Positions 27 through 1,790 of a stretch of DNA of 64,000 nucleotides are shown here, piece by piece; the stretch's first letter is position 1, and each line of letters begins with the position of its first letter. This DNA is from Candidatus Freyarchaeum deiterrae. Its GTDB lineage: Archaea > Asgardarchaeota > Jordiarchaeia > Jordiarchaeales > Jordiarchaeaceae. The DNA is taken from NCBI GenBank assembly GCA_037305845.1, contig CP147778.1, positions 1,920,001 to 1,984,000 on the forward strand, read 5' to 3'. The notes under the pieces were generated by a model that worked only from the letters and a program-made list of their open reading frames with translations, made no database searches and had not been told where the DNA came from. The translations under genes were made by a program, and so were the position numbers.

Positions 27-677
27 ATGAGTATTGACCTAAATGAAAGCAAGGAGAGGATGGTCCTAGAAATAATACAAGACCACATAAGAAAAATACT
101 ATCCGCAGTAAAAGAACTAGCCCCCTTCCTAGAAGCATGGCTAAACGAGAACGAAAACGAAATGGATGAACTACTATCAAAAATCTCACAATCAGAAAAA
201 GAAGCCGACGAAATAAAACTAACACTACTAGACGAACTCTCCGTAGCGGCAACACTAATCCAGAGAGAAGACATGATGCGACTAGTCCTAACAGCAGACG
301 AAATCGCCGACTACGCTGAAGGAACAGCCTTCAGACTAAAAGGACTAAAAAACTGGAAACCCGAAGGCTACCTAACCGAAGACCTAAGAAACCTCGTGAA
401 CACCATGATAAACGCCGTAGAAACTCTCCGAGAATCCATATTCACCATAGTAGAAGACGCGCAAAGAGCCCAGAAAGTCGCCGAAGAAGTCGACAAAATA
501 GAAAGATTTATGGATCAAATCCACAGAGCCACCGAACAATCCCTATTCGAACTAGATATAGATTATAAAACACTAATACGCCTACTAAACATAGTGACCA
601 GTCTGGAAGATGCAGTGGACACCGCAGGAAAGGCTGCGGATGCAGTACGCATAATCGCCGTAGCAAGACTAGGCTAG
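27..677 (+). CDS. DUF47 / PhoU-like (TIGR00153) helical-bundle protein
   Basis: Two repeats of the E..AD / D...D.AE motif (EKEADEIK, REDMMRLVLTADEIADYAE; ERFMD, LEDAVDTA). Confidence 0.85.
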   Translation: MSIDLNESKERMVLEIIQDHIRKILSAVKELAPFLEAWLNENENEMDELLSKISQSEKEADEIKLTLLDELSVAATLIQREDMMRLVLTADEIADYAEGTAFRLKGLKNWKPEGYLTEDLRNLVNTMINAVETLRESIFTIVEDAQRAQKVAEEVDKIERFMDQIHRATEQSLFELDIDYKTLIRLLNIVTSLEDAVDTAGKAADAVRIIAVARLG

Positions 678-1593: not shown

Positions 1594-1790
1594 GGCCCAA
1601 GTGGGGTAGACACAGTGTGCAATCACACTCTGCCCATTGGTTATCCTAGGGGACTGTGGTTATCTTGAAGCTACTGCTCAACGATAATAGTCATCCCTTG
1701 ACCCGGGCTCGTTAGCCGCTTTGGCTTCGTTTGGGAATTCAATTTGAGGATGATGCTTCGGCAGTTCTCATGAAACTCCCGGCTTGGGCC
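1594..1790 (+). tRNA. trnH: tRNA-His(GUG) with four introns (1610-1637, 1660-1692, 1708-1737, 1744-1776); genomic G-1 at 1594; CCA not encoded
   Basis: Joining exons 1595-1609, 1638-1659, 1693-1707, 1738-1743 and 1777-1790 gives GCCCAAG TG GGGT AGTGGTTA TCCT A GGGGA CTGTGGA TCCCT TGAC CCGGG TTCAATT CCCGG CTTGGGC C, a 72-nt canonical archaeal tRNA-His cloverleaf; each junction lies in a BHB or relaxed-BHB motif. Confidence 0.92.

Follow-up and report, generated by a model that had tools for sequence, protein, structure and literature searches.

The splicing endonuclease EndA cleaves BHB motifs in precursor tRNAs, and RtcB ligates the exons. The introns of a multi-intron pre-tRNA of Thermofilum pendens are reported to be removed in order (Tocchini-Valentini 2009, PNAS). 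For the three-intron pre-tRNAs of Cyanidioschyzon merolae, the order of removal was shown by RT-PCR and relates to the stability or the position of the motifs (PMC3728597). Multi-intron tRNAs of the Thermoproteales hold at most three introns, and transposition has spread these introns among different tRNA types (Sugahara 2008, reviewed in PMC4033280); the limit of three agrees with the original prediction for the locus described here.

The host genome is the published SRVP Freyarchaeia genome (3,576,204 bp, one complete contig; G000 here, with C1 in coordinates below), in which Arg-TCT, Ile2-CAT and Leu-GAG each carry four introns (Valentin-Alvarado et al. 2024; PMC11291895, Supplementary Data 4). 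Introns were reported in 92-95% of the tRNA genes of Freyarchaeia and Atabeyarchaeia genomes (PMC11291895). Positions listed for tRNAs in that study yield tRNAs when read on G000. A census of the same Asgard families counted 2.2 insertions per tRNA gene on average, with a maximum of five, and described them as BHB-enriched, independently gained, not generally copied between tRNAs and accompanied by an (alpha-beta)2 EndA; none of the intervening sequences newly found there had been shown to undergo splicing inside an Asgard cell (Goswami, Ghosh and Sinha 2026; bioRxiv 10.64898/2026.10.13.758758). The original prediction had held four introns in one tRNA gene to be exceptional, which these two studies contradict. 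The published list of 38 tRNAs for the Freyarchaeum genome contains no His (PMC11291895, Supplementary Data 4), thus the gene described here was missed there, and its BHB geometry and order of intron removal are not described in that study. Since the census is confined to genes that tRNAscan-SE calls (bioRxiv 10.64898/2026.10.13.758758), this tRNA-His is probably absent from it as well.

The gene lies at positions 1594-1790 (+ strand) of the window, the whole stretch of 64,000 nucleotides that was analysed, and consists of five exons and four introns, with coordinates and motifs that are exact in the window sequence. We are highly confident that Freyarchaeum, an Asgard archaeon from soil, has here its single tRNA-His(GUG) gene and that this gene is functional; its transcript would be spliced and charged. 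With several introns at non-canonical sites in a genome of the focal lineage, it belongs with the heavily interrupted Asgard tRNA genes, and three of its sites (15/16, 37/38 and 59/60) are in common with Ile2-CAT of the same genome. It also resembles the multi-intron tRNAs of the Thermoproteales in combining several non-canonical BHB introns per gene with an (alpha-beta)2 EndA that has a specificity loop (PMC4033280). It is therefore a fresh example of a known oddity, and neither a record nor a new mechanism. The features of the locus are as follows.

1543-1559, + strand: putative promoter of tRNA-His, BRE-like and TATA-like, CCGAAAAAA then TTTTATA, identical in six of six Freyarchaeum genomes
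1594-1609, + strand: exon 1 (G-1 to G15), with the encoded G-1, the 5' acceptor strand and the 5' D-stem
1610-1637, + strand: intron 1, position 15/16, 28 nt, central helix GGGT/GCCC, without an adjacent outer helix (relaxed motif)
1638-1659, + strand: exon 2 (16-37), anticodon GTG at 1656-1658
1660-1692, + strand: intron 2, canonical position 37/38, 33 nt, full hBHBh'
1693-1707, + strand: exon 3 (38-53)
1708-1737, + strand: intron 3, position 53/54, 30 nt, helix CCCG/TGGG plus exon helix 1698-1701/1739-1742
1738-1743, + strand: exon 4 (54-59), 6 nt, TTCAAT in five Freyarchaeum genomes and TTCAAC in G002
1744-1776, + strand: intron 4, position 59/60, 33 nt, helix TTCA/TGAA and a 7-bp intron helix
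1777-1790, + strand: exon 5 (60-73), discriminator C73, no encoded CCA
1791-1804, + strand: 3' trailer, CTCAAT plus a T-tract; congeners also have a T-tract

The promoter function of 1543-1559 is suggested by the archaeal promoter consensus, and the T-tract is likely the terminator. The four cuts are those of the original prediction and are confirmed by the motifs and by ARAGORN, which identifies the spliced product as tRNA-His(gtg) with G-1:C73. The predicted product length of 72 nt needs correction, because the exons of 16, 22, 15, 6 and 14 nt sum to 73 nt (72 plus G-1); the introns total 124 nt. The spliced product scores as a complete His cloverleaf with stems of 7/3/5/5 pairs, the conserved tRNA bases and the GUG anticodon. 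Its G-1:C73 pair, also predicted, is encoded by G1594 and C1790 and is kept in six Freyarchaeum genomes. Thg1 was not found in the genome, which fits an encoded G-1.

At the 3' end, every Freyarchaeum His gene checked has CTCAAT directly after C73, as do the two Atabeyarchaeia His genes, and CCA is encoded in none of these; the His genes of three other Asgard genomes (G011, G025 and G036) carry CCA where Freyarchaeum has CTCAAT. The trailer CTCAAT is possibly a 3' processing signal.

The predicted architecture of a 4-bp helix between 3-nt bulges is found at all four introns, with 4/4 pairing and the cut after the second bulge base, and a 4/4 helix arises by chance at 3.0% of arbitrary boundary pairs in the gene (101/3360). 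Intron 2 has the full hBHBh' motif that had been ascribed to it. Intron 3 has in addition a 4-bp exon helix (TTGA/TCAA) that was absent from the original description, and at intron 4 the T-stem becomes the exon helix of a full hBHBh' only once intron 3 is removed. An outer helix is present at introns 2, 3 and 4 and not at intron 1, which, in keeping with the relaxed flanks predicted for it, shows the central helix alone, its hairpin being separated by an internal loop. The boundaries of intron 1 were examined against a reading in which tRNA-His is real and spliced but intron 1 ends at 16/17 (26 nt) or is cut off register. Some observations suit that reading: the 15/16 and 16/17 parses are near-tied in G000 alone (53.9 vs 53.4), 11 of 121 boundary pairs near intron 1 give a 4/4 helix, and G15 in congener G002 is restored by a one-base shift of the intron. 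Yet the 15/16 parse alone gives 4/4 in all six genomes, the 26-nt version by eye reaches only 3/4 in those congeners that were checked, and homologues lacking the intron run GGGTAG-TGGT without additional bases, which makes a different boundary very unlikely. The 15/16 cut is retained here. In the G002 His gene this cut yields a non-standard A15 opposite C48, not the usual G15-C48, and the one-base shift that restores G15 breaks the motif.

The same whole four-intron His gene is present in five of five congeners, and across the six genomes 4/4 pairing holds in 24 of 24 central helices, even though substitutions have changed helix bases in introns 1-3. Compared with G000, three congeners show identities of 0.96-0.97 in the exons and 0.45-0.79 in the introns, and the divergent congener G002 shows 0.82 in the exons and 0.64-0.85 in the introns.

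The spliced product is homologous over its full length to six His genes of other Asgard families, sharing 58-62 of 73 nt with them. Each of the four junctions is uninterrupted in several of the Asgard His genes: 15/16 in G036, G023 and G011; 37/38 in G031, G025, G036 and G023; 53/54 in G031, G025, G036 and G021; and 59/60 in G031, G025, G023 and G011. These uninterrupted homologous junctions fix the cut points by homology, independently of the motif. By eye, the same sites are used in other members of the set (15/16 in G025; 37/38 in G011 and G021; 53/54 in G011 and G023; 59/60 in G036 and G021), and the introns at these shared sites have helices altered to match their own exons. An apparently contiguous 37/38 junction in G011 was discarded as a chance match to the start of that genome's intron. 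DNA and pattern searches did not find the His gene of the sister family (G006-G010), and a match in G006 was rejected because it has no tRNA context and resembles coding sequence. In Atabeyarchaeia-1 (G021), the gene published as "His, possible pseudo" (366154-366350) resembles a Val tRNA when inspected by eye, and near 464240-464420 there is a well-formed His gene with three introns.

As the original prediction had expected of standard finders, ARAGORN and Rfam RF00005 are silent on the raw DNA, and the published tRNAscan-SE list lacks the gene. A BHB-aware spliced-profile scanner was written for this analysis, built from 28 tRNAs, none of them His, and run genome-wide. It returned exactly the same four introns, and the locus was the sole GUG match with intact stems, at a low score of 19.0 bits near the best null peaks. 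With a profile made from five His genes of other Asgard genomes, the locus scores 82.7 bits, whereas the reversed-genome null peaks at 19.1; the independent loci ranked next belong to other isotypes (46.8 and 43.7 bits). Whether the genome holds another tRNA-His, a question that came with the original prediction, was addressed by both profile scans and by a search with exon 2: neither profile found a second His gene in the complete one-contig genome, and exon 2 has no second copy there even at two mismatches. A split or permuted tRNA-His was likewise not found, all five exons being collinear at one locus with no second copies detected.

These results bear on whether the locus is a decayed pseudogene or a chance parse, the true tRNA-His lying elsewhere (e.g., split in halves, too disrupted to detect). 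Such a reading would account for the failure of the standard tools and for a generic score that falls among the best null peaks (six peaks of 18 or more), but it is opposed by the distance of the His-profile score from its null and from other isotypes, by the uniqueness of exon 2, by the conservation of the gene, the promoter and all helices in six genomes, and by the completeness of the single contig. It is thus largely refuted, and we consider it exceedingly improbable. HisRS is present in the genome and His makes up 1.5% of the residues in long ORFs, so a tRNA-His is needed, and the four-intron gene is the only candidate found.

The genome also encodes the enzymes that such a gene would require, one of them directly upstream.

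679-1314, + strand: endA, catalytic (alpha) subunit of the tRNA splicing endonuclease, Pfam PF01974 and PF02778, upstream of tRNA-His

The best PDB match of this EndA is 3P1Z chain B (E 8e-43), the Aeropyrum pernix enzyme. The alpha subunit has the triad Y149/H157/K188 and a loop lysine, K66, aligned to K44 of 3P1Z. Together with a paralogue that lacks the catalytic His (C1:1733153-1733716), it provides the components of a broad-specificity EndA, and RtcB is also encoded. Asgard EndAs have been described as (alpha-beta)2 enzymes with an L1 loop, and (alpha-beta)2 EndAs having this loop and its lysine cleave relaxed, non-canonical motifs (PMC5829648).

A likely route of maturation can be proposed from these parts. 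Transcription from the gene's own TATA promoter would yield a precursor of little over 197 nt, in which an (alpha-beta)2 EndA with specificity loop would cut each BHB after the second bulge base and RtcB would rejoin the exons, in a cut-and-join cycle repeated four times. End trimming would retain the encoded G-1, and CCA would be added post-transcriptionally. In four RNA-labelled sequencing runs of the same studies no contig covered the locus, a result that speaks neither for nor against splicing. Intron 1, the weakest motif, probably needs relaxed EndA specificity; folding models put the cost of presenting it in the precursor at about 4-7 kcal/mol and mostly rank it hardest.

Introns 3 and 4 are predicted to leave in series, with refolding between the two events. 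The 6-nt exon 4 can serve intron 3, supplying its 3' bulge and outer helix, or intron 4, supplying its central helix and 5' bulge, but not both at once. T54 has to stay unpaired as a bulge base for intron 3, yet the central helix of intron 4 requires it to be paired; nucleotides 55-58 make up the outer helix of intron 3. Because exon 4 is needed by both motifs, the motifs are mutually exclusive, which argues for serial removal. Constrained folding was performed for all splicing intermediates in six genomes. In G000, removing intron 3 and then intron 4 costs 3.0 then 0.6 kcal/mol, and the reverse order costs 2.2 then 4.6; at 37 C the folding model has intron 3 removal easing intron 4 in five of the six genomes, the exception being G002. 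No single best order across the six genomes emerged from constrained folding, and we therefore claim serial removal and not a fixed order; intron 3 before intron 4 is mildly favoured, at slightly better than even chances. The order in C. merolae was obtained by RT-PCR, whereas that of tRNA-His is a prediction from a 6-nt exon common to two motifs. Being apparently single-copy and essential, with four unequal motifs and this shared exon, tRNA-His is a handy substrate for studying Asgard EndA specificity and splicing order.

The proximity of endA invites the idea that tRNA-His is functionally coupled to it, through feedback or co-transcription, and that the decoding of His thereby acts as a readout of splicing capacity. 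The end of endA is 280 nt from tRNA-His on the same strand, and the two are adjacent in four of five congeners, the pair being on separate contigs in G004. Coupling is nonetheless hard to credit, given that tRNA-His has its own conserved promoter-like stretch, that the EndA paralogue and rtcB are far off in the genome, that at least seven other tRNAs of the genome have as many introns, and that in 24 endA loci of other families no His gene was found closer than about 1.5 kb. As the adjacency is seen only within the genus among the loci checked and the gene has its own promoter, we treat the endA neighbourhood as incidental. Hardly any more probable is a more elaborate scheme in which an obligatory conformational switch (3 before 4) in the only tRNA-His, together with the position of endA, would act as a regulatory sensor of splicing capacity.

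On its other side, endA is separated by one base from a DUF47/PhoU-like gene (window 27-677, + strand). In Atabeyarchaeia-1, an uncharacterised gene (K07220) is numbered beside endA (supplement of PMC11291895), which is possibly the same pairing.

The four commonest positions among 91 scanned introns of the genome are 59/60 (19), 37/38 (11), 15/16 (7) and 53/54 (6), which are the four sites occupied in tRNA-His. BLAST found no match beyond chance in the genome that would indicate related intron copies in other tRNA types. Unlike the transposed introns of the Thermoproteales, the four His introns are mutually 33-55% alike and have no clear donor in the genome, a pattern that appears in line with separate gains at favoured sites. 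An origin by copying was considered and rejected as unsupported. Intron 4 (1744-1776) resembles the 59/60 intron of Leu-TAG (C1:1887682-1887712, - strand), a weak hint of copying with a single-pair P = 0.0036 that loses significance on correction (about 0.07 when the 19 introns of that site are counted, above 1 over all comparisons).

At least eight genes in the Freyarchaeum genome have four or more introns, tRNA-His included; newly added by our scan are Phe-GAA, Cys-GCA and Ala-GGC, with four introns each, and Pro-GGG, probably with five. The tRNA-His gene fills a real gap, that of a published complete genome without any tRNA-His, and genes for Phe, Cys, Glu, Ala-GGC, Pro-TGG and Ser-GCT, previously missing or mislabelled, were retrieved by that scan as well. 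Whole essential tRNA genes, and not single introns alone, escape current annotation in intron-rich Asgard archaea. The following are absent from the published list.

C1:1547648-1547839, + strand: Phe-GAA, four introns
C1:1690133-1690305, - strand: Ser-GCT
C1:1501693-1501840, - strand: Pro-TGG
C1:1790049-1790195, - strand: Glu-TTC
C1:1631535-1631717, + strand: Leu-CAG
C1:about 1729295-1729446, + strand: probable initiator Met
C1:about 1888852-1889089, + strand: second Leu-GAG-like copy
C1:about 1598110, - strand: second Ser-TGA-like copy

Two published genes splice better to other isotypes: Ser-AGA (C1:1326639-1326818, + strand) to Cys-GCA with four introns, and Met-CAT (C1:1545584-1545739, - strand) to Glu-CTC with three introns. 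The unlisted tRNA-Ala(GGC) (C1:1547141-1547323, + strand) has four introns, a 4-nt anticodon exon and, like tRNA-His, a 6-nt exon between 53/54 and 59/60. Pairing of its 37/38 motif rises from 2/4 in the precursor to 4/4 once the 33/34 intron has left, so that a forced order is implied.

For tRNA-Pro(GGG) (C1:1798836-1799050, + strand), published as having three introns, manual parsing gives five (15/16, 24/25, 25/26, 38/39 and 59/60) and a 1-nt exon. We regard this structure as probable. ARAGORN accepts the 74-nt product, and three of the five helices pair only 3/4. Only with the second intron gone does the third motif rise from 2/4 to 3/4.
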